Positions 7,930-55,684 of a stretch of DNA of 64,000 bases are shown here, piece after piece. Origin of the DNA: Patescibacteria group bacterium. GTDB lineage: Bacteria > Patescibacteriota > Microgenomatia > UBA1406. The stretch's first letter is position 1, and each line of letters begins with the position of its first letter. Below the pieces are notes generated by a model. That model worked only from the letters and a program-made list of their open reading frames with translations. It had not been told where the DNA came from and did no database searches. The stretch spans positions 99,464 to 163,463 of the forward strand of contig JBAYJK010000001.1 of NCBI GenBank assembly GCA_041665145.1, written 5' to 3'. Position numbers and translations under genes: made by a program.

Positions 7930-7936
7930 ATCTAAG

Positions 7937-8008
7937 TGGGTCCAGCGGGACTCGAACCCGCAACCAACGGCTTAAAAGGCCGCTGCTCTACCATTGAGCT
8001 ATAGACCC
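7937..8008 (-). tRNA. tRNA-Lys (anticodon UUU)
   Basis: Manual cloverleaf: 7-bp acceptor GGGTCTA/TGGACCC, D-arm GCTC/GAGC with GG, anticodon loop CTTTTAA, T-arm GCGGG-TTCGAGT-CCCGC, discriminator A; 72 nt. Confidence 0.85.
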
Positions 8009-13328: not shown

Positions 13329-14270
13329 ATGGACATAAAGAAGAAGCTATTAGTCATCGATGGGAGTGCGGTTTTGCACAGGGCGTATCATGCGTTGCCG
13401 CCGTTTACTTCACCCGACGGAACTCCGACAAATGCCTTATACGGGTTTATTAAAATGTTGCTTTCCCTGATTGACCAAGTACAGCCTATGTATTTAGTTG
13501 TGTGTTTCGACAGTCCTATTCCGACGTTCAGAAAAAAGCTTCTTCCGTCCTACCAAGCACAAAGACCAAAAACTCCTGACGAATACAAAGTACAGATACC
13601 TTTAACCCAAAAATATTTGGAAAAGGCTGGTATCGCACAGTATTTTTTACCCGGTTTTGAGGCAGACGATGTTATAGGTACGATTACTGCACTTTCGAAA
13701 CGCGAAGATCCGGATTTGCACGTGTACATAGTGACCGGGGATAAAGACATACTCCAATTGGTAGATGAAAGAACTACTGTGCTTATGCCAAAATCCGGTG
13801 TGGGAAACATTAACTACATGAGGGAGCAACAGGTGAAAGAGCGGTTGGGAGTGATGCCAAAACAGATTATTGATTATAAAGCACTTGTCGGAGACCCATC
13901 TGACAACTATGGTGGAATTCGCGGAATCGGCCCGAAAAAAGCCACCGATTTACTTATGAAGTACGGCAACCTGAAGAATATTTACGAGCATATAGAGGAA
14001 TTGGATCACAAGGTAAAATCCCTACTTGTAGAATGCAAAAAAGATGCAGAGCTATCTCAAACACTGGCAACCATTAAGACAGATTTAGACTTACCGATAC
14101 ATAATAGTGACCTTGATTTCAAAACCCGGACACCATCTCCCGAACTTATCGAGTACCTCGACAGCCTTTCGCTCCAAAGCATCAAACGTCAGTTGCAACA
14201 GATTAAAGCGCGTGAGGAAAAGATGCCGGTGAGTGTCAAAAAAAAAGATAACCAGCTCACTTTTTTTTGA
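13329..14270 (+). CDS. Standalone 5'-3' exonuclease / flap endonuclease (Pol I N-terminal nuclease homolog)
   Basis: LLVIDGSAVLHRAYHALPP, an acidic metal-binding cluster, and the H3TH motif GDPSDNYGGIRGIGPKKA. There is no polymerase domain. Confidence 0.85.
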   Translation: MDIKKKLLVIDGSAVLHRAYHALPPFTSPDGTPTNALYGFIKMLLSLIDQVQPMYLVVCFDSPIPTFRKKLLPSYQAQRPKTPDEYKVQIPLTQKYLEKAGIAQYFLPGFEADDVIGTITALSKREDPDLHVYIVTGDKDILQLVDERTTVLMPKSGVGNINYMREQQVKERLGVMPKQIIDYKALVGDPSDNYGGIRGIGPKKATDLLMKYGNLKNIYEHIEELDHKVKSLLVECKKDAELSQTLATIKTDLDLPIHNSDLDFKTRTPSPELIEYLDSLSLQSIKRQLQQIKAREEKMPVSVKKKDNQLTFF

Positions 14271-14320
14271 TACGAATCCACTATTTGACAAGCAGCGAAA
14301 AACTCCGTATTATAAGTCTA

Positions 14321-15001
14321 ATGTCAGTAAAAGAGAAAGAAGTCCAGAAAGGGAGTCAGATAGAGAGGGTTTTAACTGTTTGGGGTCTAATAGTTGTATT
14401 GTGGAGCATATTCCGTGCTAATTTCGGCGCCCCCTTATGGCTCAGTGAGTTTCTCATAAAACCACTAATTTTTCTCGTTCCGGTTATATTCTTCGTACAG
14501 AAATATATACAGGGAGGGTCGTTACTCAAGAAACTTGGGTTTCCTGAAAAGCGGATAGCAGAAGAACTTTTTCTGTCAGTCAGCTTGTTGTTTGTGGTTT
14601 TTGGAGCAGGAATGGTAATGTTGCTTATGAATAAACAGCCGTTTCTGTTGTTTCTCAACTCAATAAGTTTCGCAAAGGCATCGTATGTCTTCGGATTATC
14701 CATTGCCACCGCTACTGTCGAAGAGGTTGTCGGCCGGGGATTTATGTTCAATTATCTCAATAAATTCTCAAAGAATTTTGTAATGTCCATGTTTGTTTCG
14801 TCAACGCTGTTTTTTGTGTTGTATCTTCCGGGGGCGCTCACGATGCATGTCAGCGGACCGGCGTTATTCGTCAACCTTTTGATGAATTTTCTGCTCAGTT
14901 TTATGGCAGCAACCCTGTTTTACGTGAGACGAAACGTACTCGTTGCCATCGGATTTCATGCGGGTGTTCTCTTATGGTTTGATTTGTTACTCGGAGTATA
15001 A
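14321..15001 (+). CDS. CPBP (CAAX protease/Abi) family intramembrane metalloprotease
   Basis: EEVVGRGF (EExxxR) and FHAGV (FxxxH) motifs in a multi-TM protein. The start is ambiguous: the ORF-track start 14267 overlaps the preceding gene, and M at 14321 is used here. Confidence 0.6.
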   Translation: MSVKEKEVQKGSQIERVLTVWGLIVVLWSIFRANFGAPLWLSEFLIKPLIFLVPVIFFVQKYIQGGSLLKKLGFPEKRIAEELFLSVSLLFVVFGAGMVMLLMNKQPFLLFLNSISFAKASYVFGLSIATATVEEVVGRGFMFNYLNKFSKNFVMSMFVSSTLFFVLYLPGALTMHVSGPALFVNLLMNFLLSFMAATLFYVRRNVLVAIGFHAGVLLWFDLLLGV

Positions 15002-15003
15002 TA

Positions 15004-16617
15004 CTACGGGTTTTCGAATATCCAGAACATTTCCTCGGTCTCGATCTTGATTTTCTTCACGCGATCTTCTGGAACTTTCAGTATTTTACCTCCCTCACCA
15101 GAGAAAACATACACACTTTTTTTAGGGCGCATCTCGCTGTTGTAGGGATCGGTGCTGAAAGTGAACTTGTCAAACCCCGTAACTTGGCCGAACCCAAATT
15201 CATCAGGGAGTGTTAATTGTGCTGTCTTCTGATAGTTTTTGGGTGAATAACGGAGGTAAAAGAGTAGATAAATATAGGGTTGTCCGTTGTCTTTGGTAAT
15301 GTAAAAGTGATCAAACTTTGAGTAATTTTCCTTAATATAATCGGCAAGTTCGCGATAGCCCGCTTGAAGCGAACGTACTGCCACGGCTTTTTTAGGATAA
15401 TGTACGAAGAAATAAAAAGACGAAAGCATGGAACCAAGTATAACGAGCACAACAAGAACGTGTGTCATGTAGTGCAACCGCCGCGATTGTAAGAAACTGG
15501 TAATTCCGTAAGCGGAAAGCGGGATCAGGAGAGCAATAAGCGGATAGACTCTGGTGAGCGCATATTCCTGCCATGTAAGAGCCCCATTAAGTGGGGCAAC
15601 GAGAAGCACCACCCCCAGAACGAGAAACTCTTTTTTCCACTTAAAAACCACAAGAGCAATTCCGATGAGAAAACCCACGTACTCCATCAACGGAACGGGG
15701 GAAATATTTGGGTAACCAAACCTGTTATTTACGTCGCCGTGTTGGGTGAGAAACTCCGGGGAAAAGTAGGAGACATAGCGGCGCGAAATCTCCTGAATAC
15801 CAACGAGCAGTTTACTGCTAAATGGGGAAAATCGTTCTTCAATTTTGGCGCTTTCGGTCTTTATGGAAATGTCGGGGTTATTCAGGATAAAAAGGTTTTT
15901 AACCCGTTCAGCTGGCGTCAGTTTCTCTCCGACCACAAATAATCCAATTCCAGCAACAAATACTACCGCACAGATTATCGCCACTGTTTTTGTTTGAAAG
16001 AGTTTGGTTAGAACCTTCTTTTGCCAGGCGAAATAGAGTGCAATCATAAATACAGTGGGAGCGATGATTTTCCCGGTATGATAGGAAAATAAAATAAACG
16101 GAAGAAGACATATCGTTAGCCAGAAGAATTTTAATTTTGCTGTTTTAGCAAAAAGTGTCAGTGTATAGAGCGAAATTACCATAAATGCTGACGCAAGAAC
16201 TGTTTCATGAGCCTGTCGCGCTATTGTGTGTATCCATGGCGAAAATGCAGCGAAGAGTAGCGCAACCGTGGCTGTATATTCACTCTCAAATAATGCTTTC
16301 GTGAACAAATATATTCCCAACACCAAAACCAGCGCCGCTATACCGGCGACAAGGCGGGTGGAGAACTCGTTCAGACCGAAAACTCCCACCGCAGGTACCG
16401 TGAGATATGAATAAAGAGGAAGCTTGTAATCACCAAAGGATTTGAGGCGAAGAGGGAAAATTGAACCGTATTCATCCCGACCGGTTTTCAGAATGGAATA
16501 TGCGTTGTATCCGAAGGCGGCCTCATCCGCTGTAAAACCCGGCGGCGACTTAACTGGTAAGAAATGCCAGATCAGCGTAATGCTAATTGCAAGAGCGATC
16601 AGCAGTTTTTTTATCAT
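15004..16617 (-). CDS. ArnT/PMT-like GT-C glycosyltransferase (GT39/GT83-like)
   Basis: First-loop motif FTADEAAFGYNAYSIL...DYKLPLYSYL (DE catalytic pair, KPPL-like) and a multi-TM topology. Confidence 0.65.
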   Translation of the reverse strand: MIKKLLIALAISITLIWHFLPVKSPPGFTADEAAFGYNAYSILKTGRDEYGSIFPLRLKSFGDYKLPLYSYLTVPAVGVFGLNEFSTRLVAGIAALVLVLGIYLFTKALFESEYTATVALLFAAFSPWIHTIARQAHETVLASAFMVISLYTLTLFAKTAKLKFFWLTICLLPFILFSYHTGKIIAPTVFMIALYFAWQKKVLTKLFQTKTVAIICAVVFVAGIGLFVVGEKLTPAERVKNLFILNNPDISIKTESAKIEERFSPFSSKLLVGIQEISRRYVSYFSPEFLTQHGDVNNRFGYPNISPVPLMEYVGFLIGIALVVFKWKKEFLVLGVVLLVAPLNGALTWQEYALTRVYPLIALLIPLSAYGITSFLQSRRLHYMTHVLVVLVILGSMLSSFYFFVHYPKKAVAVRSLQAGYRELADYIKENYSKFDHFYITKDNGQPYIYLLFYLRYSPKNYQKTAQLTLPDEFGFGQVTGFDKFTFSTDPYNSEMRPKKSVYVFSGEGGKILKVPEDRVKKIKIETEEMFWIFENP

Positions 16618-17441
16618 AAGTTAGTCAAATACCTTGATAATGCCTGCTTAAATCCGACAATAAATTGCCGGTTTTTCCTCTGCGACCATAACAAAACGGG
16701 TAGTTTGACGATGTGTTCAATCAGATTCTTCCCCCTGATATTTTTCCAGATAAAAATAAACTGATTGCGGTTGGCTATGATACCAATCTCTTGCCTTGAG
16801 AAATAAGAAGATATTGTTGTCTCGTGGTGGTGTTCGACGAGAATCGCGGGATAATAGATGTTGTGGAACCCGGCTTTGCGGGCACGAAAGCCCAAATCCA
16901 CATCTTCCCAGTAAAATGGAGAATAGATTTTATCAAAGCCGTCTAGCCTGTTGAACATCTCCCTGCGGACAATACATGAACCACCCTCCGGCCACAAAAC
17001 TTCACAGGTGACTTCGGATTGTATACCCCGGTGGTGAAACAAACCGTTTTCGAAATAACCTTCATTGGCTCCGACAATTTTTCCGTCCCGTTCCTTCTGA
17101 GCGAAGGAAACAGCAAAGAGCAACGTATCATTATCAAATAATGTGAAAGCCTTCTCAAAAGACGAGTCATTAAGCAGGACATCGCTGTTCAGGAGCATTA
17201 CAAACTCTGTTTTACTTTCAGAAACCCCGCGATTGACTGATTGACCAAACCCGCAATTCTTTTTATTAACAATTACCGTTATATTTCGTGACACCTTTTC
17301 AGCCTCGTCAAGTGATACTTCTGGCGAGTCGTTTACTATAATAATTTTGAAATCCGAAAGAAATTTCTTGTTGTGTTTCAGGGTATTCAAGAGTCCGGAA
17401 AGGTCTTTGTAAAAGGGAATAATTACAGTAAGTCGACGCAT
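16614..17441 (-). CDS. GT2-family glycosyltransferase (GT-A fold)
   Basis: IIPFYKD...VNDS...NSDVLL DxD-like motifs and GT2 layout. Confidence 0.7.
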   Translation of the reverse strand: MRRLTVIIPFYKDLSGLLNTLKHNKKFLSDFKIIIVNDSPEVSLDEAEKVSRNITVIVNKKNCGFGQSVNRGVSESKTEFVMLLNSDVLLNDSSFEKAFTLFDNDTLLFAVSFAQKERDGKIVGANEGYFENGLFHHRGIQSEVTCEVLWPEGGSCIVRREMFNRLDGFDKIYSPFYWEDVDLGFRARKAGFHNIYYPAILVEHHHETTISSYFSRQEIGIIANRNQFIFIWKNIRGKNLIEHIVKLPVLLWSQRKNRQFIVGFKQALSRYLTNL

Positions 17442-17446
17442 ATACT

Positions 17447-18520
17447 CTATTTTACCATTCGCATTACATTCTGCGAAAAAACCTTAAAACTGTATTTCTC
17501 ACGTGCTCGAAGTACGGATTTTTCAGCAAACATTGTACGGAGCTTTGGGTCAGATATAAGTTTCTTTGTGTATGTTACTAATTCTGTTTTTTTGTCATAC
17601 AAATAACCACTATTTCCATGAAGAATTATTTCTTTCGGCCCGCCGCCATTGTAGGCAAGTGGTACACAGCCCGCCGCCATGGATTCGATAATCGAAATGC
17701 CGAAATGTTCCATTTTCTCCGGCTCTAGTAGTTCATTTTCTCCGTATCCGGCAGCATGCCAATAAAACGTGGATTTTGCGTAAAGTTCTTTCAATTCAGC
17801 AAATGATATGTTTTCGAATATCTGAATTTTTGAATTGTCCTGACTTAACTTTTTCAAGCTTTCCAAATATTTGTGGTCCTCCGGCCTGCAGCTTCCGGCA
17901 AGAATCAGTGAGTATTCGCGAAATTCTTTGTGATTCCTCTGAGCTTGACTGAACGCCTTTATGAGAATCTCCTGTTTTTTTGAGTGCAGATGTCCGAAGA
18001 ATCGCCCCACGGAAAGAATCATTTTTTCTTTGTTGTTTTTCGGTAGTGAAAAATATTCATCGCTTACGGCCGGGTTCAGAATATATTGTTTATCAGTCAA
18101 TTTTTTCTTTTCAAAGAAATGTTTGACGAAATTGTCATAGTATACCGGTTTGAATTTTTGTGACTTAAGTTTATTAAACAGTGAGACAGGTAATAAACGG
18201 GCGGTTGGTGCTTGCAGTATCACAAAATTCTTTTTAGCCAAACTGAAAAAGTAACTTCCGTCAGAGTGAAAAAATACTACATCGTACTTTCTGGTTCTTG
18301 CAATTTTTGACAGTAAACTACTCGACTGCCATTCTGTATCGATTCCAATAAAGTCGTATTCTTGACCGAATCGGTCAAGCACGTGTTTTTTTATTTCCAC
18401 ATCATGCCATAGAAATACACAATCGTATTTATTTTCATGAAGCACCCGAGCTATGTCAAAAAGGTATTTTTCACCTCCTCCCAGCGTTTCCAAATAGGGA
18501 GTGTAAAACGCTGCTTTCAT
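17447..18520 (-). CDS. GT4-family glycosyltransferase (GT-B fold)
   Basis: C-terminal EX7E-type motif GISIIESMAAGCVPLAYNGGGPKEII. Confidence 0.75.
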   Translation of the reverse strand: MKAAFYTPYLETLGGGEKYLFDIARVLHENKYDCVFLWHDVEIKKHVLDRFGQEYDFIGIDTEWQSSSLLSKIARTRKYDVVFFHSDGSYFFSLAKKNFVILQAPTARLLPVSLFNKLKSQKFKPVYYDNFVKHFFEKKKLTDKQYILNPAVSDEYFSLPKNNKEKMILSVGRFFGHLHSKKQEILIKAFSQAQRNHKEFREYSLILAGSCRPEDHKYLESLKKLSQDNSKIQIFENISFAELKELYAKSTFYWHAAGYGENELLEPEKMEHFGISIIESMAAGCVPLAYNGGGPKEIILHGNSGYLYDKKTELVTYTKKLISDPKLRTMFAEKSVLRAREKYSFKVFSQNVMRMVK

Positions 18521-19290
18521 GATTGTTTTGTATACTTTTTCTCGAATAGAAGCATCCAGGTAATAGTCTTGCTGTACGCCTGGTACATCGACTCGATAAC
18601 TCCGTATGTTCCGTCGAGGTGTCCCGATTTTTTTATGAGCCTTCGGAACAATTCCCCTAAGAATTTTCTGAAAAACGTGAACGTTCTAACATTTCTTCCT
18701 GCTTCCAGAAGTTGTTGAGCCTCAATTGTTTCGTAAACTATTGTCGACGCAACCATGTTTTCGAGACTGGAGTGAAAGTAATGTAAGAATGGCTCATTAA
18801 GCGTTCCTTCTTTCCCTGAAACGACAGGTTGGGAATGAATATGTTTCGGCCACGATATAAAAGACGGTTTGAACAGCAGCCTGCCGCCCACATAGTCGGG
18901 CCACCAGCCACCATGTTTGAGCCACTGTGTGTTGGCAAAAATATTTTTGCGTGGAATCCGGTAATGAGTGAAGGGGGGATTTTCCTCAGCCGCTATACTC
19001 TTAACCGTTCGGGCAAGTTCTCCGGTCAATTCTTCATCGGCATCAAGAATGAAAACCCATGGACCGGGGGACTTCTGCACATCAAATTCCCGCCCTGGTT
19101 CAACATAGGTTGTTATAGGGTGGGTTAGTACCGTTGCGCCTAATTTGTGAGAGAGAGATGCTGTTTTGTCCGTGCTTCCGGCATCCACAACCACAACATC
19201 GTCAGTAACCAAAAAAGCAGATGTAATACACCGGGAAATAATTTTTTCCGCGTTTCTGGTGTGAATAACTACGGTAATGTGTTTTGACAT
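18517..19290 (-). CDS. GT2-family glycosyltransferase
   Basis: VVIHTRNAEK...VVDAGSTDKT...ILDADEEL, a GT-A DXD-containing fold. Confidence 0.7.
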   Translation of the reverse strand: MSKHITVVIHTRNAEKIISRCITSAFLVTDDVVVVDAGSTDKTASLSHKLGATVLTHPITTYVEPGREFDVQKSPGPWVFILDADEELTGELARTVKSIAAEENPPFTHYRIPRKNIFANTQWLKHGGWWPDYVGGRLLFKPSFISWPKHIHSQPVVSGKEGTLNEPFLHYFHSSLENMVASTIVYETIEAQQLLEAGRNVRTFTFFRKFLGELFRRLIKKSGHLDGTYGVIESMYQAYSKTITWMLLFEKKYTKQS

Positions 19291-19299
19291 TTTTGCTGA

Positions 19300-20832
19300 T
19301 TAACGTATTTCATAGTAGCCGATGTCCGTATCCACAATGGTAATTCCCCGAAGTTTTACGCTTCTGTCAAGACCCTGGTCATTCATCCACTTAGTTCTTC
19401 GCTCTTCGAAGTCGTCGCGCTCAAGAACAAACCAGCATCTGTTATTCACCCACTGTGTTTGTGGTTGGGGCAGACCTTCGGTTAACTTACGGTGCAGGAA
19501 AAGATAATCATATGTGTAAGGAATTACCGGTGGGGTATAAACTTTGACACAATACTCTTTGTTTGAAGATTTTACTTGGCTGCTTATATAATCAACGACT
19601 TTCTCCATTTTTATTAAACCCTCGGTTTCAGGGACACTTTTGAAACTTTTGACAGTACCGGTAAATCCGGTCAACGTCATTACTACAATAAGCGTGGCCG
19701 TCAAAAACTTTTTCACAACACTGTCCGTAGCACGGTACAGCAATATGGACAAAACAACAAGAAACAGAAGATGTATTCCTTCATAGTAATTTGCCCAAAA
19801 ATTATCTTTATAGAAAGTCGATAAGAAAAAAAGCCCTCCGAGTATAAATACGTAGAACTTCAAAGGTGAATTACCGGAATGTTTTTTGAAGGCAGCTACG
19901 ATAAGGTAGATAAGTAAGACCGATAATAGTGCCAAAATCCACGGGTTTGCCGATAAGCCTTCATAGTAGCCCTTGAATAAAACAATTCTGTCCTGTATTA
20001 CATCCCAATAGGGTTTTGGGTTGTAAAGGTGGGGTTTGATAAAAAATCCGATCAGCGTTTTTGTTTGAAGGAATTCATGCCTTATTTCAAAAAAAATTCT
20101 CATGGAAAATGCGATGAAAAGTCCTAATCCGAATAAAATCCCCGGCCGGAATTTCAATAGTGCAGAACGCAGATCTTTAAACAAGAGTGTGCCCATGAAG
20201 AACAAAGGAATCAAGAACATTCCAAAAGACAACTCAAATTCTGCGACAAGTCCCAAAGAGATGCCGAGTGGAAAAAATACCCACAAAGCGGTATTTTTAC
20301 TTTTTTGCTGGTTGTGGAGAATAACGTAGCTCAGCAAAGCAAAAGCGAGCAAAGCAGGCAGCACCATTATGTTATTTCCTATAAAAACAGAAGTCATTTG
20401 AAAATACGGCGATGTGGCTATCAATAGAGCGACCAATGCAGTAGTTGTTTTGTTAAAATACCGCAACAGGAAATAGGCAAGTACAAGAAATACGCCGAAT
20501 TGCAGTGCGAAGTTAAAGAAATAGAATCCAATCGGCGATCCTTTAAAAAGGAGGAATGGCACGACCAGAACATAGTACCACCATGCTCCATGAAACATTC
20601 CCGTAACACCGGTAGTGGGACCAAGAAACGTTGGTTTTTTGTCCAAGATGATTTTTGCTGCCTGTAGCATATCTCTTCCCTGATCATAGGTGTAGGGGAC
20701 CATATGGTTTAACAGCGGTTGGATACGAAGGGCAATAAAGAAAACGACAGACAGTGAAAATACTACCGGAAACCACCATTTACTAAAAACGGCCCGAAAA
20801 TCGGTTTTGTTATTTTTTTTTGCCATGTACAT
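19300..20832 (-). CDS. Polytopic membrane protein, putative GT-C glycosyltransferase ('YDQGRD' paralog family)
   Basis: Motif YTYDQGRDMLQAAKII...GPTTGVTGMFHGAWWYY and more than 10 TM helices. The ORF-track start 21042 overlaps the upstream gene by 233 nt; M at 20832/20826 (MYMAKK...) is the likely start. Confidence 0.5.
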   Translation of the reverse strand: MYMAKKNNKTDFRAVFSKWWFPVVFSLSVVFFIALRIQPLLNHMVPYTYDQGRDMLQAAKIILDKKPTFLGPTTGVTGMFHGAWWYYVLVVPFLLFKGSPIGFYFFNFALQFGVFLVLAYFLLRYFNKTTTALVALLIATSPYFQMTSVFIGNNIMVLPALLAFALLSYVILHNQQKSKNTALWVFFPLGISLGLVAEFELSFGMFLIPLFFMGTLLFKDLRSALLKFRPGILFGLGLFIAFSMRIFFEIRHEFLQTKTLIGFFIKPHLYNPKPYWDVIQDRIVLFKGYYEGLSANPWILALLSVLLIYLIVAAFKKHSGNSPLKFYVFILGGLFFLSTFYKDNFWANYYEGIHLLFLVVLSILLYRATDSVVKKFLTATLIVVMTLTGFTGTVKSFKSVPETEGLIKMEKVVDYISSQVKSSNKEYCVKVYTPPVIPYTYDYLFLHRKLTEGLPQPQTQWVNNRCWFVLERDDFEERRTKWMNDQGLDRSVKLRGITIVDTDIGYYEIR

Positions 20833-21634
20833 ATGATAACAAGTAATTAACGACAAGATGAAGCTTGGTGCGGAAAGGTGCATAAAGAAGCCCGAAGTAT
20901 AATTGGGACCACTTCTGTGTCTTTTGGTGAAATAACGAGCCTGAACCTCCGGTAATTCCCGCGTTCTTATGATAGATAACAACGTCCGGATTATAGTACA
21001 ACCTGAAACCTTTTTTTCTGGCACGTATCGAAAAGTCGGCATCCTCGTAATACAAGAAAAAGTGCTCGTTCCATGGCCCTACTTTTTCCAGGACATCTTT
21101 GTTGAAACATACCATGCACCCGGTTATAAATTCGGTTTCTTCAAAACGGTCATATTGGCCGCTGTCGACTTCGTCCACTCCCCGATGAGTAGCATACATA
21201 TTAGCCCAATCAAACAATCCGCCCGCATACCAAATTACACGCCCAAGTTCGGTTTTTGAATAATTCTTTTTATGAAACTCAAAACCTTTGGCATAGTATA
21301 TTTTCCCGCCAAAAAAATCCGCTGATAAGAACCCTTTACTGACATTCTCAATAAAATTGGGGGACGTGGTTACATCGTAATTAAGTACGCAAAATTGATC
21401 AAAACCGCTTTTCAGTGCCTGTTTAATACATACGTTTATTCCATGACTATAACCTTTATTCGAGCTTTTTACGATTTGTATGGGAAATGGAAACTTGTCT
21501 GTCGGTATATTCAGATTATTCGAGAAGTCGGCAACAAACAACGTGAAATCTTTACCGGTGTTTTTCACGAGCGAAGCAAGAAACTCATCGAGCACATCAG
21601 GCTCGTGTAAATACACAATTATTAATGCCAGCAT
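20810..21634 (-). CDS. GT2-family glycosyltransferase (rhamnosyltransferase-like)
   Basis: LALIIVYLHEP...LFVADFS...YYEDADFSIRARKKGF layout. Confidence 0.7.
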   Translation of the reverse strand: MLALIIVYLHEPDVLDEFLASLVKNTGKDFTLFVADFSNNLNIPTDKFPFPIQIVKSSNKGYSHGINVCIKQALKSGFDQFCVLNYDVTTSPNFIENVSKGFLSADFFGGKIYYAKGFEFHKKNYSKTELGRVIWYAGGLFDWANMYATHRGVDEVDSGQYDRFEETEFITGCMVCFNKDVLEKVGPWNEHFFLYYEDADFSIRARKKGFRLYYNPDVVIYHKNAGITGGSGSLFHQKTQKWSQLYFGLLYAPFRTKLHLVVNYLLSYVHGKKK

Positions 21635-21676: not shown

Positions 21677-22609
21677 ATGGACTATTCACTGGTTATCCCG
21701 GTATATAATGAACAAGATAACGTTGAGCAGTTATATGAGCGTACCCGGAAAGTAATGGTTACCCTGAAGAAGAAATTTGAGCTTATTTTCATTAATGACG
21801 GATCGCACGATTCAACACAGGAATTATTAACCAAACTACATGCGGCGGATGACAAGGTTAAGGTAATAAATTTCTCCCGAAACTTCGGTCACCAGGTCGC
21901 AGTAACCGCGGGTTTAAAATTTGCCACTGGAAAGAAAATCGCGATTCTTGATGCTGACCTGCAGGATCCTCCGGAAGTGTTACCAACGTTTTTTGCCAAA
22001 CTGGATGAAGGTTTTGATGTTGTTTACGCTATCAGAAAACATCGGAAAGAAAATTTCGTGAAACGTTTTTCATATTTTGTTTTTTATCGTTTGTTGAAAA
22101 CAATTGCAAGTATCTCCATACCGCTTGACAGCGGTGACTTCTGTGTTATGTCGAGTCGGGTTGTATCACTGCTCAACACGTTACCGGAGCGTAACAGATT
22201 TATCCGCGGATTACGCAGTTGGGTTGGTTTTAAACAGGTCGGTGTTGCATACGACCGGGATAACAGGCATGCAGGAAACAGCAAATATACACTCCATAAA
22301 ATGTTTAAGCTTGCCTTTGACGGAATATTTTCATTTTCATATGTTCCTCTGCAACTCTTAACTTTTGCCGGATTTTTGTTTTTTGTGCTTTCAATAGTCG
22401 GGAGCATTATTACCGTGTACGCTAAATTTTTTACCTCTGTCTATATTCCGCGCGGTTTTCCAACAACCATTATCACGATTCTATTCATAGGGGGAATAAA
22501 TATGCTGGCGCTCGGGATTATGGGTGAGTATATCGGCCGGATCTATGATGAAGTGAAGCATCGGTCTCCTTTTATTATTGAATCAACATTAGGTTTAGGT
22601 GAAAAATAA
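21677..22609 (+). CDS. Polyprenyl-phosphate glycosyltransferase, GtrB/ArnC/Dpm1-like GT2 with C-terminal TM pair
   Basis: SLVIPVYNEQDN, FINDGSHDST, ILDADLQDPPE, and two C-terminal TM helices, as in bactoprenol glucosyltransferase GtrB. Confidence 0.8.
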   Translation: MDYSLVIPVYNEQDNVEQLYERTRKVMVTLKKKFELIFINDGSHDSTQELLTKLHAADDKVKVINFSRNFGHQVAVTAGLKFATGKKIAILDADLQDPPEVLPTFFAKLDEGFDVVYAIRKHRKENFVKRFSYFVFYRLLKTIASISIPLDSGDFCVMSSRVVSLLNTLPERNRFIRGLRSWVGFKQVGVAYDRDNRHAGNSKYTLHKMFKLAFDGIFSFSYVPLQLLTFAGFLFFVLSIVGSIITVYAKFFTSVYIPRGFPTTIITILFIGGINMLALGIMGEYIGRIYDEVKHRSPFIIESTLGLGEK

Positions 22610-23702
22610 ATTAATTCTGGTTCTCTATTTTGTATTGCTCGGTTTGTTTTCTGTTTATTCGTATGCGTTAGTCGATCCCAATTACACTCCGATTACTTCT
22701 CAAATATGGGAGTGGTTTCGCAACATTATGGTGCAGCTCGGGTATTATCAGAGAACATGGTCATTTGTCATCTACGTATTACTGACAAGTGGACTTTTTG
22801 TATTCCAATGGTTAGTGCTGAAGCAACACAAGGTATCCGTTATTAAACTGGCAATCGGAGTCAGTCTTCTCACCCTCGTGGCTTATCCGTTTTTGTCGCA
22901 CGATTTTTTTAATTATTTGTTTGATGCGAAGATAATCACTCACTATCATCAGAGCCCGTATAAGTTTGCGGCGTGGGACTTTACGGGAGATCCTGATTTG
23001 CGGTTTATGCATTGGGTACAGAGAACGTATCCGTACGGTCCGGTGTTTTTGGCTTTGACTGTTATCCCATCCTTTTTATCGTTTGGAAAGTTTCTGCTCA
23101 GTTTTCTATTTTTTAAGATACTGTGGTCGATTTTATTTGTTCTGTCGGGTGCCATATTGGAAAAGGTGAATAAAAAGGCTGCTCTTTTTTATATTACTTC
23201 GCCGCTGATTATAGTTGAGGGTTTAATAAACAGCCATAATGACCTTATCGGCGTGTCTCTTGCTATGTTTGCTTTATATTATGTCGTAAAGAAAAAAAGC
23301 ATTATCAGTCAAGGACTATTTTTTCTTTTGTCTATCGGAATCAAGTACACAACTGCACCGTTTGCGTTTCTTATGGTAAAGCATAAATACACAACACCAC
23401 TTATTATTGCAGGGTTCATTGCAACACTATGTTACAGTTACACAAAGGTGGGAATTCAACAATGGTATTTTTTGAACCTGTTTATTTTATTACCTTTTCT
23501 CATGCCGTATCTTTTAGAGCTGTCCGTACTTAGTGGCTTTCTTTTGGCATCATACTACCCGTATATAGTGTTAGGCGGTTGGGATACGTCCGAAAAAGTA
23601 ATACTTAAGGAACAGATTATTTTCTTAGGAATTGCTGTCACGGTTGCGATTTTTATCTTCAGAAAAATCAAATCTCACTTCAGCGGTCGTAACTCACGGT
23701 AG
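22599..23702 (+). CDS. Polytopic membrane protein (GtrC-like position; putative GT-C transferase)
   Basis: About 10 TM helices with no cytoplasmic domain. It overlaps the stop of the GtrB-like gene, suggesting translational coupling. Confidence 0.4.
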   Translation: MKNKLILVLYFVLLGLFSVYSYALVDPNYTPITSQIWEWFRNIMVQLGYYQRTWSFVIYVLLTSGLFVFQWLVLKQHKVSVIKLAIGVSLLTLVAYPFLSHDFFNYLFDAKIITHYHQSPYKFAAWDFTGDPDLRFMHWVQRTYPYGPVFLALTVIPSFLSFGKFLLSFLFFKILWSILFVLSGAILEKVNKKAALFYITSPLIIVEGLINSHNDLIGVSLAMFALYYVVKKKSIISQGLFFLLSIGIKYTTAPFAFLMVKHKYTTPLIIAGFIATLCYSYTKVGIQQWYFLNLFILLPFLMPYLLELSVLSGFLLASYYPYIVLGGWDTSEKVILKEQIIFLGIAVTVAIFIFRKIKSHFSGRNSR

Positions 23703-26068
23703 ATTACCCTTGCTGATATAAGGAGAGAACACATGAAAAGCAAAATCCCGATTTTAAACACCTTGTCGTCATAGGACATAATTACAGAGTGTGTTCCGGG
23801 AGACAACTGTATTCCCTGAAATGCATAATCGGCCTTCAAAATCTGAGACGTACGTCCGTCTACCGTTGCTCTCCAAGTGGGATAATAGGTACTATTCACG
23901 AAAAAGACACCGTCGTTGTACGTAGTTATTCGAAACTTCTTTGTTTGAGAAGTTAATTCTATTACTTGAACATTCGCCTTCTTCGTCGTGCGTGTTCTTT
24001 CTGTGGTGTGTTTCTGTATTTTATCTGTCGTTATTGTTATTTCATTTTTCGGATCAAATGTATCTGAAAGCAATACTGCCAGCGCTTTGGAATTGTCTCT
24101 TGCAAGTCGGACGTTATTGCTGGGTACGAAATAAAATTGGGAGTTAGCGTCTGTATTATGACGGATTGAGTATATGCCGTCTGACCATATAGGAGGGAAA
24201 ACGGTATCGAATTTCCTGTTCGGATTTCTGTTTTCCCACGGGGATTGGAAGGTTCTGTTCTTATCTACAACATACTTCACACTTAAAATATTCATTATTC
24301 TATCGGAAAAAAGACCTTCGTTTAAGTTGACTGCCGCCCGGTCTTGCACGTCCGGTTTACCTGTTCTGGCTGAGTATAGGAGTTCGCCATATTCCCGTAT
24401 ATAAAGCGGATCGCTTCCGTTGACTGCGGTTCCACCGAGCATCATCGCAAAATTTCCGTCCACATAATTGTAATATTTCTGCCCAAAAAGATTGCTGTGC
24501 ATATATTGAGCAATTGGGGTAGGAGGATAAAAAAACTCCCGCGGAGAAAAAGGTGTGTATTTTTGTGAGAATCGAACTATATCAACAATCTGGACTGAAA
24601 AAAGCAGAACGGTAATTATAAGGACCGCTGTACGGTTCGTGTTTTTCGCTAACAGCACCAACAATGTTATATCGATTGCAATAAAAAGCGTAGGCAGTAT
24701 TAAGTTGCGAATGGCAACGGGAAACCATTGTTGCAAATCGGGAAAGCGCATGACTACAAGAGTGGTGGTCCAGATGAAAACGGTAATCCCGAATAGCACA
24801 CCACATGCTATTATCATTCTTTGAACCCGCAATTTTTGAACGGGAAGATGTTGTAAAAAAAGGCATCCGGCCACGATGGAAGAAAACATGGTGATGCTTA
24901 AATTCCGGGAGAAAGTCGAAGTAGAAAATATCGGTATATTAAGCTTCCACAGTATGAACAGAAGAGGATTCTCAACAGAAAGAATAATGCCGATTAACGA
25001 CAAGCAGACAAAAAATAATAGGTTTTTATCAAGCCTCTCCTTTTTATAAAGTTTGATAATAGTGAAGACAAGTTCGGTGATGAATAAAACAAAGAATAGC
25101 GTCCCGACAAAAGAAACAGTTTCTGCATAATTGTTTTTTCCCCACCAATTACGGGTTACCAGATTTCCAAAAAAATCCGGAGCAAACATGGAAACCAGAT
25201 GGGGGACTTGAATGGATTGATCGCGGTAGAAGCTTTCTCCGGAAACCATATTTCGAGCTGACAAACCGTTCAACTGAAGTGTCGGAAGCAGCTGAGGAGC
25301 GCCCAGACAAAAAAGAAGCATGCCATGGAGCAGAAGCATTTTGATGGATATTTTTTTAAACACAGCGTAAGCATAGAACAACATTATTACGATACATGCC
25401 GTTTGAATGTGCCCGGAAAAAATAGAAACAGAAAGAGGAAGTAGCGAAAGAAAAAAGTATTTCTCGACAAGTAGCAGTGCCCATGGCAACATGGCATATG
25501 CGTATCCGATGGTACCCCACGGCAGCCATACGGTCATATACCCCGAGAACGCAAAGCTTAACCCACCCATAACAGCCACGGTCTTTGTGCAGGATACTTT
25601 ACGGAGAAACAAATACATTCCGATGCATGCGATAATCAGCTGTGTGATTATAAACAGATTATATGCTGAAGCGTACCCGGCTATGAAAAAGAAGATGTTG
25701 AACGGATTGAATACAGACGATTGTGTATTTGCAAGATGAGGTGCTCCGCTCAAAATATGCGGATCCCACAAGGGGATAATCCCTTTTTTCAATGATTCAA
25801 TCGTGTAGTATTTCATGGGGAAAACTACCGAGACAACATCGGACATGAGTATATTTTTCGGTTTTGTATATTGAGCATATAGATCAGGAGTTTTCTCCCA
25901 CGGCAAGTCTTTGTACGGGTGATAGTAATTAACAAGGAAATCAAACGGACCGATAACCAATTTTTTGGTGACGATTGGCCGTGCAAAGTATCCAATGACG
26001 GAAATACAAATTACAAAAGGAATCAGTAAACGGAATATCGCGACTACTTTTTTTTGATTAGTGCCCAT
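23675..26068 (-). CDS. Large (797 aa) polytopic membrane protein, YfhO/GT-C-like
   Basis: An N-terminal block of about 14 TM helices plus a C-terminal extracytoplasmic domain of about 200 aa, an architecture like YfhO-type membrane glycosyltransferases. Confidence 0.4.
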   Translation of the reverse strand: MGTNQKKVVAIFRLLIPFVICISVIGYFARPIVTKKLVIGPFDFLVNYYHPYKDLPWEKTPDLYAQYTKPKNILMSDVVSVVFPMKYYTIESLKKGIIPLWDPHILSGAPHLANTQSSVFNPFNIFFFIAGYASAYNLFIITQLIIACIGMYLFLRKVSCTKTVAVMGGLSFAFSGYMTVWLPWGTIGYAYAMLPWALLLVEKYFFLSLLPLSVSIFSGHIQTACIVIMLFYAYAVFKKISIKMLLLHGMLLFCLGAPQLLPTLQLNGLSARNMVSGESFYRDQSIQVPHLVSMFAPDFFGNLVTRNWWGKNNYAETVSFVGTLFFVLFITELVFTIIKLYKKERLDKNLLFFVCLSLIGIILSVENPLLFILWKLNIPIFSTSTFSRNLSITMFSSIVAGCLFLQHLPVQKLRVQRMIIACGVLFGITVFIWTTTLVVMRFPDLQQWFPVAIRNLILPTLFIAIDITLLVLLAKNTNRTAVLIITVLLFSVQIVDIVRFSQKYTPFSPREFFYPPTPIAQYMHSNLFGQKYYNYVDGNFAMMLGGTAVNGSDPLYIREYGELLYSARTGKPDVQDRAAVNLNEGLFSDRIMNILSVKYVVDKNRTFQSPWENRNPNRKFDTVFPPIWSDGIYSIRHNTDANSQFYFVPSNNVRLARDNSKALAVLLSDTFDPKNEITITTDKIQKHTTERTRTTKKANVQVIELTSQTKKFRITTYNDGVFFVNSTYYPTWRATVDGRTSQILKADYAFQGIQLSPGTHSVIMSYDDKVFKIGILLFMCSLLISARVIYRELRPLK

Positions 26069-27486
26069 ATTTCGTTGATGAATGATCCTTTTGTCATGAA
26101 CATAATAGCTGCCGAGTAACTGATTGCTCCTGCACCGAAAAGAACAACAGACTTCATGTAGTACGAAAAATCAAATCTCTGTATGATAGTCAAAATGACG
26201 GCCATAATTACTGTTGCGACTGCCGGTTTAAAAACGGATTTAATAAATTGAAACGGAATATTCCGTTTTAATTGCCATATAACCAGAACGAATGACGTTG
26301 CGTTAAGTGCAAAAGCAATAGATACACCGACCAAACCGAAGAAATGTATCGACAGGGGAACCATGGTCCAATTCAGGATAATCCATAGAATCATGAATTT
26401 CACGGATATCCTAACTTTTCCTATCGCATTGAACATGTTTATCGCCGGAGTCGTGAAGCTGACCAATAATGATGAGATAAGAAAGAAACTAAACGAGGGA
26501 AGTGCCGTGGTCCATTTTTGATACTTCGGAATAATAGCTACAAAAAGGGGCATCATAAAATATGCTCCGACAAGCACGGGAAAAAGCAATAAGCAATTAT
26601 AAAAAATAATCTTTTCCAAGCTGTGTGCAAGTTTTTCTTTGTCATCCTGCATTTTGGAAAAAACCGGGAAAAGGACCTTGTTTAAGTTATCGATAATAAT
26701 CCGCAGAGGTGCCTCTGCCCATTTTTTTGCCCACCCGACATAACCGATTCCCGATAATCCGAGCACATTTGCCATATACAAATTCAAAAGGTCATCTTTT
26801 ACGAAAGCAAGTAGCACATTTGATTGAAACGGGATGCCGAAACTCAGAATGGCTTTCGCGTGCACTTTATCGAAATACAACCGCGGCCTCCATTTGGTAA
26901 GTCCGTAAATGAGGGTCATTCCGGCAATCGAGCGGATAATGACAGCTATTGCAAGTGCGTAGATTTTGAACCCCGCCAACAGAAAAACAATACTTACAAC
27001 GTAGAACAAAGTGCTTTCAATTGCCTGTGTTGCGACTATCTTTGAATATTCCAACTCGCGTTCCAATCGTGCAGACGGAATAGACTTTAATGAAAGCAAA
27101 AACAAAGAAATCAACATTGCGATGTACAGTGTTATTCCCGACACGGAAAAATGATAAAACGTGCCGATAACCGGAGTAAGCGCGGCACCTATGGCGACGA
27201 TAGTTGTTACGAGTCCTATCTGTATGGTGAAGGCAGTATGATACTCGTTATCGCCCGGATTTTTGTGCTGAATAAGAGAGGCGGCGAGTCCTACGTCGGT
27301 GAAATAGTTGAAGATGGTCATGATCGACAAAACTATGAAATATAAACCGTATTCAGATGGCTGAAGAAAAATAGTGAATACCAGATTGGCAACGAGCCCG
27401 AGAATTGCCGAATATGTACTGTTTCCCAGAAAATACGCTATGCCAAGCAGCCCTTTTCGTTTGATGTCTGGTATTTTGGTGTTCAT
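26044..27486 (-). CDS. Wzx-like oligosaccharide flippase (MOP/polysaccharide biosynthesis protein family)
   Basis: About 12-14 TM helices; the N-terminal GLLGIAYFLGNSTYSAILGLV...LQPSEYGLY is typical of PF01943 flippases. Confidence 0.65.
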   Translation of the reverse strand: MNTKIPDIKRKGLLGIAYFLGNSTYSAILGLVANLVFTIFLQPSEYGLYFIVLSIMTIFNYFTDVGLAASLIQHKNPGDNEYHTAFTIQIGLVTTIVAIGAALTPVIGTFYHFSVSGITLYIAMLISLFLLSLKSIPSARLERELEYSKIVATQAIESTLFYVVSIVFLLAGFKIYALAIAVIIRSIAGMTLIYGLTKWRPRLYFDKVHAKAILSFGIPFQSNVLLAFVKDDLLNLYMANVLGLSGIGYVGWAKKWAEAPLRIIIDNLNKVLFPVFSKMQDDKEKLAHSLEKIIFYNCLLLFPVLVGAYFMMPLFVAIIPKYQKWTTALPSFSFFLISSLLVSFTTPAINMFNAIGKVRISVKFMILWIILNWTMVPLSIHFFGLVGVSIAFALNATSFVLVIWQLKRNIPFQFIKSVFKPAVATVIMAVILTIIQRFDFSYYMKSVVLFGAGAISYSAAIMFMTKGSFINEIWALIKKK

Positions 27487-27504: not shown

Positions 27505-29235
27505 ATGAAGAGATTATTTCTTTCGGTATTCTTTATAGTAATCGCTTTCTCGATTCTCGTTACCATTTTACCACTTTTGAATTCCCAATATTTCAGCATG
27601 CATGACCGTCAGCACATCGTGAGACTTTTTTTACTTGATACGGCGGTAAAACAGGGGGAATGGTATCCGCGATGGGTGGATGGATTGGGTTTTGGTTTCG
27701 GCTATGCACTGTTCAACTTTTACCCCCCATTAATTTACTATGTTGCCGAAGCATTTCGCCTTGTGGGGTTCGGGTATATCTGGTCAGTGAAATTGATGAT
27801 TATTACCGGATTTCTTGCTTCTTTCGTCGGCATGTATATGTTGCTGAATAAGTTGGTGAAAGACAAACCGATTGCCTTATTAGGAGCCGAGCTTTATCTA
27901 CTGTCACAATATCACGCAGCACTTGTATATGTACGCGGCGCATTTGCGGAGTTTTTTGGTTACAATCTGGTTCCGTGGGTATTCTATGGCTTTTATCTTC
28001 TGGTTACAACAGGAAATATCTATTGGTTTGCAGTATCGTTTGCACTTCTTATACTTGCTCACCCGTTTGTAGCATTTCCATTCGTATTACTTTTTATTGT
28101 TTTTTATGTTGTTTACTCGATTTTCAATACAAAAGAGTTTATTGCAACAACCGCAAAGTTGATTGCGAGCAGTTTACTCGGGTTGGGATTGTCAGCATTT
28201 TTTTGGTTGCCGTCCATGGTTGAGCGTTCATTTACTTTGGTGAACACGGTTCTTACGAAACAGCTTGCGGACTATCGCGTACATTTCGTGTTTATTCGCC
28301 AATTATTTAACTCGGCCTGGGGGTATGGTGGGTCAATACCCGGTCCCGATGACGGTATGTCGTTTGAGATTGGGAAGTTACACATATTGTTGATTGGAAT
28401 GACCTTGATGAGCGTGACCTGGATACTCGTTAGAAAGAAACATGCGGTAAACAGAACCCACCACATTATCATGCCATTTATTTTTCTGATCGTTTTTTCC
28501 GCTTTTATGGTCACCGGAAAGTCTCAATTTATTTGGGATAGCATATCCTTTTTGTGGTATTTGCAGTTTCCGTGGCGTTTCCTGGTGTTCGTATCGTTCT
28601 TCAGTAGTGTAGTCGGTGTCATGTGGTTGTTGTTCATAAGAAAAAACCACCAACCGCTGTTACTACTTATAATATCGCTGTCTGCGTTACTCTTTTACGG
28701 CAGGTTGTTTAAGCCTGAGAAATTGATCAGCGGAAATGACGATGTATATGTGACTCCCCATGAAATTTCCTGGGAACAAAGTCATAGTTCGTATGAATTC
28801 ATGTATAAAGATGTCCAAACAGTTGTTAAAGGTAATTCCAGAAGTTTTGTTTTGACGGAGAAAGAATTGCCGAAGGCGCTGTTTGCTACCGGGAGTATCG
28901 ACGCGCGAGGTAAAACTCTCGGAGATTTATATGAACGTAAATCATTTTCAGTAAGTTCCCGGCAAGGTACGTCATTTACTTTGAACCGTTCTTACTTTCC
29001 CGGATGGAAGGCGTTTATTGATGGGAAACAAACAGAAATTACTCCGATGGGACCGACTCAGGTAATGAATATCCAAGTGCCGCAAGGAATGCATACCGTG
29101 GTATTCAAATTTACGGATACCCCAATACGTAGTGTGGGGTGGGTTGTCACAGCTTTTTCTGTATTACTGCTATTTCAACCCAAAAAGATATACAACATTG
29201 CCACTCGGTCGGGGAAACCGCTGAAGCAGTCGTAG
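27505..29235 (+). CDS. Polytopic membrane protein, YfhO/PTPS-related-like GT-C
   Basis: N-terminal motif MHDRQHIVRL...GEWYPRWVDGLGFGFGYALFNFYPPL followed by many TM helices and a C-terminal beta-rich domain. Confidence 0.45.
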   Translation: MKRLFLSVFFIVIAFSILVTILPLLNSQYFSMHDRQHIVRLFLLDTAVKQGEWYPRWVDGLGFGFGYALFNFYPPLIYYVAEAFRLVGFGYIWSVKLMIITGFLASFVGMYMLLNKLVKDKPIALLGAELYLLSQYHAALVYVRGAFAEFFGYNLVPWVFYGFYLLVTTGNIYWFAVSFALLILAHPFVAFPFVLLFIVFYVVYSIFNTKEFIATTAKLIASSLLGLGLSAFFWLPSMVERSFTLVNTVLTKQLADYRVHFVFIRQLFNSAWGYGGSIPGPDDGMSFEIGKLHILLIGMTLMSVTWILVRKKHAVNRTHHIIMPFIFLIVFSAFMVTGKSQFIWDSISFLWYLQFPWRFLVFVSFFSSVVGVMWLLFIRKNHQPLLLLIISLSALLFYGRLFKPEKLISGNDDVYVTPHEISWEQSHSSYEFMYKDVQTVVKGNSRSFVLTEKELPKALFATGSIDARGKTLGDLYERKSFSVSSRQGTSFTLNRSYFPGWKAFIDGKQTEITPMGPTQVMNIQVPQGMHTVVFKFTDTPIRSVGWVVTAFSVLLLFQPKKIYNIATRSGKPLKQS

Positions 29236-51160: not shown

Positions 51161-51229
51161 GTTGCGGGGCTGGGAGTCGGACCCAGCCTAAAAGGTTATG
51201 AGCCTTTTGTGCACCGTACACTACCCCGC
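51161..51229 (-). tRNA. Atypical initiator-like tRNA-Met (anticodon CAU), 69 nt
   Basis: Manual fold: acceptor TGCGGGG/CCCCGCA plus A (matching the E. coli tRNA-fMet acceptor strand apart from a U1-A72 pair in place of the C1xA72 mismatch; a 3' A also follows CCCCGCA in both), U8, anticodon stem AAAGG/CCTTT with loop CTCATAA (U33, CAU, A37), T-arm CTGGG-TCCGACT-CCCAG. Oddities are a 5-nt D-loop and C55 instead of U55. An extended -10 lies upstream. Confidence 0.5.
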
Positions 51230-51244
51230 ACTAATTTACGAGAT

Positions 51245-55606: not shown

Positions 55607-55680
55607 CGGGGTGTAGTTCAGATGGCTAGAACGTACGCATGGGGTGCGTAAGGTCGCCGGTTCAAGTCCGGCCACCCCGA
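55607..55680 (+). tRNA. tRNA-Pro (anticodon GGG)
   Basis: Manual fold: C1-G72 acceptor CGGGGTG/CACCCCG (C1:G72 is typical of bacterial tRNA-Pro), U8, D-arm GTTC/GAAC with GG, anticodon loop ATGGGGT, T-arm GCCGG-TTCAAGT-CCGGC, discriminator A; 74 nt. Confidence 0.8.
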
Positions 55681-55684
55681 CAGC

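Follow-up and report, generated by a model that had tools for sequence, protein, structure and literature searches.

A Patescibacteria-centered family of probable ArnT-like GT-C glycosyltransferases with a D-x-G-R-D signature in loop 1

We analyzed a 64,000-nucleotide stretch of the genome of a Patescibacteria group bacterium (contig JBAYJK010000001.1, positions 99,464 to 163,463; hereafter the window, in which gene coordinates are given), and in particular the gene at 19300-20832, which encodes a membrane protein termed B. Together with two paralogs in the window, A and C, B is probably an integral-membrane glycosyltransferase of the GT-C type (subclass GT-CA, ArnT-like) belonging to a large uncurated family centered on Patescibacteria; these proteins would move a polyprenyl-phosphate-linked sugar onto an envelope glycan or glycoconjugate, with residue D48 of B as the catalytic residue.

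Three paralogs with a common loop motif

The paralogs and the two conserved segments of B, which flank or form part of juxtamembrane (JM) helices 1 and 2 in the first loop (loop 1), are as follows.

6166-7812, + strand: paralog A, 548 amino acids; motif G-Y-D39-Q-A-R-D43 at 6274-6294
19300-20832, - strand: paralog B, 510 amino acids; putative GT-C glycosyltransferase of the D-x-G-R-D family
20671-20694, - strand: B residues 45-52, Y-T-Y-D48-Q49-G50-R51-D52, at the start of the JM1 helix (residues 47-61), the predicted first extracytoplasmic juxtamembrane helix
20587-20628, - strand: B residues 67-80, F-L-G69-P-T-T-G-V-T-G76-M-F-H-G80, Gly-rich beta-hairpin between JM1 and JM2
32964-34445, - strand: paralog C, 493 amino acids; motif D46-Q-G-R-D50 at 34296-34310

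An earlier note on this DNA had described three open reading frames (ORFs) as a three-member paralog family with a shared loop motif directly after the first transmembrane (TM) helix. The three ORFs and the peptides quoted from them were recovered, and both the paralogy and the common motif were confirmed by an alignment of all three proteins and by pairwise BLASTP (25-26% identity over 370-450 residues). With E-values of 6e-14, 7e-15 and 1e-15, the similarity reflects homology rather than chance, and A, B and C are, as judged from their sequences, true paralogs. Residues D39, Q40, R42, D43, G60, P61, T63, G71 and Y76 (A numbering) are invariant in the three-way alignment. When all window ORFs were scanned with the family profile, exactly A, B and C were found (437, 321 and 286 bits), with one further weak match (27 bits, E 7e-9) to the protein encoded at 15004-16617, a PMT_2 protein of the DE type, that is, with an Asp-Glu pair in loop 1.

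B is 100% identical to the NCBI entry 'MAG: hypothetical protein WC775_03235 [Patescibacteria group bacterium]' (MAG, metagenome-assembled genome), whose start lies two codons later, at 20826, and gives 508 amino acids. The longest ORF of B reaches 21042 and overlaps the upstream GT2 gene, and that of C begins at a TTG at 34550 and overlaps the neighboring gene; the longer starts are unlikely in both cases. The longest ORFs of C (- strand) and of the GT-C gene 34342-35571 (+ strand) overlap head-to-head by ~100-200 nt at 34342-34550, so that, from their coordinates, at least one of the two genes must start further in.

The D-x-G-R-D motif and the Gly-rich hairpin are conserved

Conservation was assessed on two alignments, one of 35 sequences (orthologs of B together with A and C) and one of 99 sequences, in which this set was extended by divergent subfamilies from an exhaustive search. 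In the smaller set D48, Q49, R51, D52, G69, P70, T72, G80 and Y85 (B numbering) are invariant. In the larger one D48 is kept in 99/99 sequences, D52 in 98/99, R51 in 96/99 and G50 in 93/99. Conservation in the family is highest in the Gly-rich hairpin, with G69 present in 99/99, G76 in 98/99, G80 in 97/99 and P70 in 88/99. In contrast, the position of Q49 is occupied by Q in 45 sequences, V in 28, H in 6, T in 5, N in 3, A in 3 and other residues in the remainder; Q is fixed only in the orthologs of B and in some subfamilies. An approximate pattern screen detected no Asp or Glu directly after the first Asp in ~225 sequences. Because Q49 varies while D48, G50, R51 and D52 are kept, 'DQ' is not the signature of the family, which from the alignments reads [FY]-x-[YF]-D-x-G-R-D ... 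L-I-G-P-T-T-G-x-x-G-x-F-[HY]-G-x-W-W-Y-Y. We propose that Q49 is a subfamily-specific and non-essential position. Conservation of the DQ..RD motif in homologs from other genomes, on which the earlier note had made its reading depend, thus holds at D48, G50, R51 and D52 and fails at Q49.

Distant paralogs adjoining B in other genomes read FGYDQARD, HTDIARD, DFGRD and FGFEQGRD. E-Q-G-R-D in place of D-Q-G-R-D was observed in distant paralogs at three loci (L019 4813-6312, L049 7590-9137 and L057 7539-9059); this is a natural Asp-to-Glu swap at an otherwise invariant position, and it keeps the carboxylate.

B is predicted to have a GT-C fold closest to that of ArnT

AlphaFold2 was used with the 35-sequence alignment to model B (pLDDT, the per-residue confidence score, 90.7; pTM 0.91). 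The model comprises TM1 (residues 10-39), helix JM1 (47-61, starting with Y47-D48), a hairpin with strands 68-71 and 78-80, helix JM2 (82-93), TM2 (98-123), about nine more TM helices (~11 in all) and a C-terminal alpha/beta domain (404-508). The disordered N-terminal 10 residues aside, the lowest pLDDT (67) was found in the 71-80 block. In a Foldseek search of this model against the PDB, all significant matches were GT-C enzymes (all 18 top). The best was ArnT (5f15/5ezm; E 3e-7, TM-score 0.59/0.56), followed in order by ALG12, ALG9, Pmt4, STT3, AftA, AglB, AftB and PglB; STT3, PglB and AglB are lower-ranked matches with TM-scores of 0.46-0.49. The model supports the assignment of A, B and C to the GT-C fold and the GT-CA subclass, with ArnT as the closest relative. 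The comparison with ArnT and other GT-C structures had been proposed in the earlier note, and its suggestion of a distinct GT-C subfamily is upheld by a fold that matches GT-C enzymes only in proteins to which neither Pfam nor NCBIfam devotes a family.

ArnT and PMT enzymes carry an Asp-Glu dyad in their active site, D55/E56 in ArnT and D77/E78 in Pmt1, of which only the first Asp is universal in GT-C enzymes (PMC7801869). In the GT-CA subclass the catalytic Asp lies at the tip of JM1, at an equivalent place in ALG6, ArnT, PglB and PimE, and PimE uses a single Asp (PMC12041525). The family was aligned by hhalign with the DE-type family formed by homologs of the window protein 30770-32251, in which W49-D50-E51 is invariant. 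The alignment was full-length (71% probability, E 3.6e-5) and paired D48 with D, Q49 with E, R51 with L and D52 with Y of the DE-type WDESLY; DESLY was aligned in turn to DETRY of E. coli ArnT (D31-E32) with 70% probability. A control AlphaFold model of 30770-32251 (pLDDT 93.0), whose best fold match is also ArnT (TM-score 0.68), contains TM1 (2-41), JM1 (50-63, starting with D50-E51), a small hairpin, JM2 (83-94) and TM2 (99-126). DSSP assignments of both models gave a common TM1-JM1-hairpin-JM2-TM2 layout and spacing with the Asp at the N-terminus of JM1, D48 being the second residue of helix 47-61 in B. The hairpin is shorter in the control, with two-residue strands at 71-72 and 75-76 compared to 68-71 and 78-80 in B. 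In B, the DE-type paralogs and E. coli ArnT alike, the Asp follows TM1 by 8-10 residues. Because the profile alignment, the control model and the distance from TM1 agree, they support the mapping of D48 to the Asp of the ArnT/PMT dyad; the location of the motif given in the earlier note is thereby retained, and D48 would be the catalytic carboxylate.

The N-terminus of B (MAKKNNK...) and its short loops TM4/5 and TM6/7 (KSKNTA and FKDLRSALLK) are Lys/Arg-rich. From the model combined with the positive-inside rule, the N-terminus of B is predicted to be cytoplasmic and loop 1 and the C-terminal domain to lie outside, as would a conserved E196/E198 pair, a 'P-R-x-x-F-E-x-R-H-x-F' motif after TM7 and a loop with W344 and Y347. 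An outward placement of loop 1 agrees with what is expected of the active site of a GT-C enzyme.

Size, distribution and annotation of the family

With B as the query, a word-indexed search returned 312 relatives, nearly all annotated as hypothetical; the named ones are almost all from Roizmanbacteria, Woesebacteria or 'Patescibacteria group'. An exhaustive profile search yielded 6,733 representatives of 50%-identity clusters at E<=1e-3 and 1,126 at E<=1e-30, and the members belong mainly to Roizmanbacteria/Microgenomates. The family is therefore not small, and the earlier count of three members applies inside this window only. When each GTDB species was represented by a single genome, a pattern scan detected a B-type gene in 112 species, mostly Roizmanbacteria and Microgenomates. 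A few of the B-type record titles name Nitrosocosmicus, Limisphaerales or Woesearchaeota; these lie on short contigs and look like mis-binning. Many MAG records that represent species in GTDB and bear the title 'uncultured Gammaproteobacteria bacterium' (third-party annotation (TPA) assemblies; L011, L012, L014, L019 and others) contain a Roizmanbacteria-type cluster, and their titles look like placeholder or wrong taxonomy.

B scores 17.2 bits with PMT_2 (PF13231), below the gathering cut-off of 26.1; A and C have no Pfam match at E<=0.1, and none of the three matches an NCBIfam model, that of ArnT included. PMT_2 is matched at E<=0.01 by 14 of the 35 family members, several divergent members exceed its cut-off (27-35 bits) and one homolog is named 'glycosyltransferase family 39 protein' by NCBI, so that the family is not wholly outside known families. 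NCBI calls another homolog (P0079) 'YfhO family protein'; the YfhO model PF09586 is matched by 0/35 family members, and true YfhO-like genes occur elsewhere in the window, at 23675-26068 and 27505-29235. In A, B, C and the 35 members no match was obtained to PF02366 (PMT), a MIR domain or the STT3 Pfam family.

B lies in a conserved glycan gene cluster

B belongs to an operon-like block of genes on the - strand, with divergent genes beyond its first gene.

20810-21634, - strand: GT2, first gene of the B block, upstream of B
18517-19290, - strand: GT2 (Pfam), directly downstream of B
17447-18520, - strand: GT1 (Pfam), B block
16614-17441, - strand: GT2 (Pfam), B block
15004-16617, - strand: DE-type PMT_2 GT-C (Pfam), end of the B block
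14267-15001, opposite strand to B: Rce1-like, beyond the PMT_2 gene
21677-22609, + strand: GtrB-type polyprenyl-phosphate hexose synthase, 310 amino acids, divergent from the B operon; Synechocystis GtrB 5ekp, E 2e-82
22599-23702, + strand: MptA_B-like GT-C membrane protein, 367 amino acids, homologous to genes labelled PF26314 MptA_B_family elsewhere
26044-27486, - strand: Wzx/MOP-type flippase; Polysacc_synt_3, E 8e-52; NCBIfam MOP flippase

The GtrB homolog also matches ArnC (E 1.5e-44) and, with 261 bits, the NCBIfam model PgfS, under its 500-bit cut-off. Beyond the GtrB and MptA_B-like genes stand a YfhO-like protein and then the Wzx flippase, which is part of the same glycan locus as B. 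In total, the B cluster contains three GT-C, three GT2 and one GT1 enzymes and the flippase. The ~50 window ORFs scanned yielded no match to a Wzy polymerase, a WaaL ligase or an LCP catalytic domain.

Gene order was compared in 80 loci from other species. Because they had been retrieved by searching for the motif, these loci served for synteny and adjacent paralogs only and are not independent evidence of motif conservation. A GT2-GT1-GT2 series follows the B ortholog in 47 of the 59 loci with enough flank, and in 53 of 70 eligible loci the opposite strand upstream of B carries the MptA_B-like gene. The GT2 of the 20810 type is present in 55/80 loci, a PMT_2 homolog in 40/80 and a Wzx flippase homolog within 6 kb of B in 29/80. 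An A-type paralog (150-490 bits to A) directly follows the B ortholog in ~30/80 loci, which indicates that the A/B duplication is old and that both types usually act side by side. The order GT2, MptA_B-like, B, (A-type), GT2, GT1, GT2, PMT_2, Rce1-like, together with Wzx, is kept in dozens of Roizmanbacteria/Microgenomates species (L007-L086). The B cluster looks like a lineage-wide assembly cluster for an envelope glycan whose product has no description.

Surroundings of A and C, and other genes of the window

A has here changed its position and adjoins a DedA-family gene, and C is part of a separate module (29170-38965).

5444-6097, + strand: DedA-family (VTT domain) gene, 69 bp upstream of A; Pfam VTT_dom
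29170-30777: DE-type GT-C, C module
30770-32251: DE-type GT-C, 493 amino acids, C module; the AlphaFold2 control model described above
32221-32967, - strand: DPMS/ArnC-like GT2, 248 amino acids, its ATG overlapping the stop of C (ATGA); Pfam Glycos_transf_2
34342-35571, + strand: GT-C, 409 amino acids, C module, strand opposite to C
35572-36696: GT2 fused to a GtrA-type TM domain, C module
36693-37643: UDP-glucuronate decarboxylase, C module; human UXS1, E 2e-103
37640-38965: UDP-glucose dehydrogenase, C module

The DedA gene scores 193.6 bits with the NCBIfam DedA model (cut-off 236) and 56 and 44 bits with the models of UptA, an undecaprenyl-phosphate transporter, again below cut-off; it is a possible polyprenyl-phosphate recycling partner of A.

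The GT2 at 32221-32967, which is translationally coupled to C, is a candidate polyprenyl-phosphate-sugar synthase, its best solved relatives being the Dol-P-Man synthase of P. furiosus (5mlz, E 6e-15) and ArnC (E 9e-13). A C ortholog (P0362, 408 bits) has the same neighbors in the same gene order in an unrelated assembly (L087 1-9440), where a 250-amino-acid GT2 overlaps it likewise; a search for related loci made with C alone returned no relative. The gene content suggests that the C module is a pathway for extracytoplasmic glycosylation from polyprenyl-phosphate-xylose (or another pentose, or GlcA). The neighboring UDP-xylose pathway hints at a pentose donor for C, and four GT-Cs in the module compete for the pairing.

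The DE-type protein 30770-32251 has no Pfam or NCBIfam match despite an ArnT-like loop 1 (W-D-E-S-L-Y...G-R-E-M...F-D-K-P-P-L) and represents another uncurated GT-C family, with >390 relatives; phmmer searches of two DE-type neighbors against the PDB returned nothing significant. Some ten GT-C-type or GT-C-like proteins were counted in 30 kb (those beginning at 6166, 15004, 19300, 22599, 23675, 27505, 29170, 30770, 32964 and 34342), which is unusually dense for a genome of reduced size (GC ~0.41). Two ORFs, 32189-32707 (+ strand, 172 amino acids) and 32992-33411 (+ strand, 139 amino acids), are antisense to the GT2 gene and to C, respectively, and are most likely shadow ORFs and not genes. Downstream of the glycan locus, the segment 38983-49790 holds dTDP-rhamnose genes (RmlD-, RmlB- and RmlA-like), secreted CAP-domain and lamin-tail-domain proteins, an M23 peptidase with FtsE/FtsX, RF-2-like release factor domains and a LytR_C-domain protein. 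The window also carries tRNA-Lys (7936-8008), tRNA-Met (51161-51230) and tRNA-Pro (55607-55681).

Discussion

Relation to known systems

B and ArnT, its best structural match, have in common the TM1-JM1-JM2-TM2 opening with an Asp at the N-terminus of JM1, an Arg at +3 from this Asp (DETRY in E. coli ArnT, DQGRD here) and a C-terminal extracytoplasmic domain. They differ in that the family has no second acid after the Asp, an Asp instead of a Tyr at +4 and a conserved Gly-rich hairpin in loop 1, and in that the B model has ~11 TM helices compared to 13 in ArnT. Membership in ArnT/GT83 was not observed: the motif is D-Q/x, there is no NCBIfam match and no ArnT sequence in the PDB is matched. 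Domain scans detected no arnA, arnB or arnD in the window, and the host, unlike that of ArnT, is a member of the Patescibacteria. The 'ArnT-like' proteins of the PMT_2/COG1807 type are homologous to B over the TM2-TM6 core and are co-located with it in the same glycan loci; DE-type paralogs of this kind in the window are 15004-16617, 29170-30777 and 30770-32251. Their loop 1 reads W-D-E-S-L-Y...G-x-E-M...D-K-P-P-L, as opposed to D-x-G-R-D...LIGPTTG in the family, and with respect to PMT_2 itself A, B and C lie under the gathering cut-off and some divergent relatives over it. The family also differs from PMT/GT39 in having no PF02366, no MIR domain and no DE dyad. A, B and C thus fall outside ArnT/GT83, PMT/GT39, YfhO and STT3 and below the PMT_2 cut-off; they are best described as a very large uncurated GT-CA subfamily, centered on Patescibacteria, with its own loop-1 signature and a probably ordinary mechanism.

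Systems of three components (GtrA, GtrB and a GT-C) are an established precedent, in which the GT-C is presumed to be the final transferase (PMC11127046). As in these systems, a GtrB homolog stands beside B, and a GtrA-type TM-fused GT2 (35572-36696) and a DPMS-like GT2 stand beside C. Unlike in these systems, GtrB is not conserved beside B orthologs, there are many GT-C genes per locus with several possible synthase-transferase pairings, and the context is not that of a serotype-converting phage.

Proposed mechanism

By analogy with three-component glycosylation (PMC11127046) and with GT-CA structures (PMC12041525), transfer of a sugar from polyprenyl phosphate onto an envelope glycan outside the cytoplasm is the most likely function. 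A GT2 of the GtrB/DPMS type would load the sugar onto polyprenyl phosphate, and the lipid-linked sugar would be flipped across the membrane. JM1, the helix with D-x-G-R-D, and the 'LIGPTTG' hairpin would be placed by TM1 on the outer side of the membrane, where the enzyme would transfer the sugar to an exported glycan or glycoconjugate. D48 would serve as the catalytic carboxylate, either as a base or by activating the hydroxyl of the acceptor or holding it in position. R51 and D52, on the same face of the helix one turn after D48, may with the Gly-rich hairpin form the remainder of the active site contributed by loop 1, probably shaping the donor and acceptor pockets. The acceptor glycan would be built by the co-conserved GT2 and GT1 enzymes and exported by the Wzx-type flippase.

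Several observations weigh against this proposal. The mapping of individual residues draws on profile alignments of ~70% probability and on matched secondary-structure elements. In addition, hhalign against an ArnT profile placed R51-D52 on ArnT R40-E41 with 9% probability; this profile is of low diversity, because the search seeded with E. coli ArnT yielded no relative below 76% identity, and the shifted register was not trusted. The alignment of the 35-sequence set to the single E. coli ArnT sequence reached 0.2% probability. Equivalents of the phosphate-binding Lys/Arg residues of ArnT were not mapped with confidence, since, both in the latter half of loop 1 and near the TM7 'PRxxFExRH' motif, the hhalign and secondary-structure registers are several residues apart. 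Profiles made from the 35- and 99-sequence alignments found nothing significant among PDB sequences, ArnT included, and no relevant paper on the family in Patescibacteria or the candidate phyla radiation (CPR) was found. Finally, only 3/80 loci contain a GtrB homolog at most 6 kb from B, which makes the assignment of a donor to B indirect.

Alternative explanations

The fold and the gene content of the locus would also accommodate an oligosaccharyltransferase- or ligase-type GT-C that, like PglB, AglB and STT3, moves a whole Wzx-flipped polyprenyl-diphosphate glycan onto a protein, peptidoglycan or a lipid anchor. These three enzymes are among the significant fold matches, B has an extracytoplasmic alpha/beta domain at its C-terminus, a Wzx-type flippase is encoded in the cluster and, with no Wzy, WaaL or LCP among the scanned ORFs, some GT-C may fill their role. 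However, the enzymes using monophosphate donors (ArnT, ALG12, ALG9 and Pmt4) outscore the oligosaccharyltransferases in Foldseek, the STT3 Pfam family is not matched, synthases of monophosphate donors (GtrB- and DPMS-like) lie beside B and C, and any of up to nine other GT-C-type candidates in the locus could equally be the ligase. We consider this explanation unlikely. Less probable still is a protein O-glycosyltransferase of the PMT/GT39 type acting on Ser/Thr of secreted, surface-layer (S-layer) or pilin proteins. PMT_2 is the only Pfam relationship of the family, a family 39 name has been given to one homolog, and Pmt4 and Pmt1/2 are fold matches; against this stand the missing PF02366, MIR domain and DE dyad, the alignment of PMT structures over only ~275 columns or with a lower TM-score than ArnT, and conserved neighbors that are glycan-building GT1 and GT2 enzymes and a flippase, with no obvious protein substrates.

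The earlier note had taken DQ..RD in place of DE as a sign of altered catalytic chemistry or of a different donor or acceptor. A changed chemistry that defines the family, such as a loss of metal binding or another nucleophile or donor class, could be argued from the non-acidic residue that follows the Asp in the pattern screen, from the near-invariant D52, which at i+4 could supply a second carboxylate from a different position, and from the longer Gly-rich hairpin of B relative to the DE-type control. The Q itself is variable, and GT-C enzymes generally keep only the first Asp, several being metal-independent with a lone Asp (PMC7801869, PMC12041525). The claim is thus not supported, and we regard such a chemistry as very improbable. 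We retain the transfer of a polyprenyl-phosphate-linked sugar by an ArnT-like GT-C as the preferred explanation.

A bolder and rather doubtful extension of it is that the D-x-G-R-D/'LIGPTTG' clade forms a distinct Patescibacteria-centered GT-C family (a new CAZy family once characterised), in which the hairpin and the i/i+4 Asp pair replace the donor- or metal-binding residues of ArnT/PMT-type enzymes, and which with two other GT-Cs builds a lineage-specific envelope glycopolymer of Roizmanbacteria/Microgenomates, possibly from pentose donors such as polyprenyl-P-xylose for C-type enzymes.

Significance

Nothing known about GT-C enzymes is overturned by these results, which would not surprise a specialist. 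The true signature, D-x-G-R-D with the Gly-rich hairpin, guards against over-reading 'DQ' as new chemistry, and the profile, the candidate catalytic residues and the candidate donor synthases provide a handle with which thousands of 'hypothetical proteins' can be annotated. Although the genomes of Patescibacteria are tiny, ~30 kb of this one are devoted to about ten GT-C-type membrane proteins. Because the B cluster is conserved across many uncultured species, its glycan is probably important for the envelope or for host attachment, and the family offers an entry point to the envelope biology of Patescibacteria.

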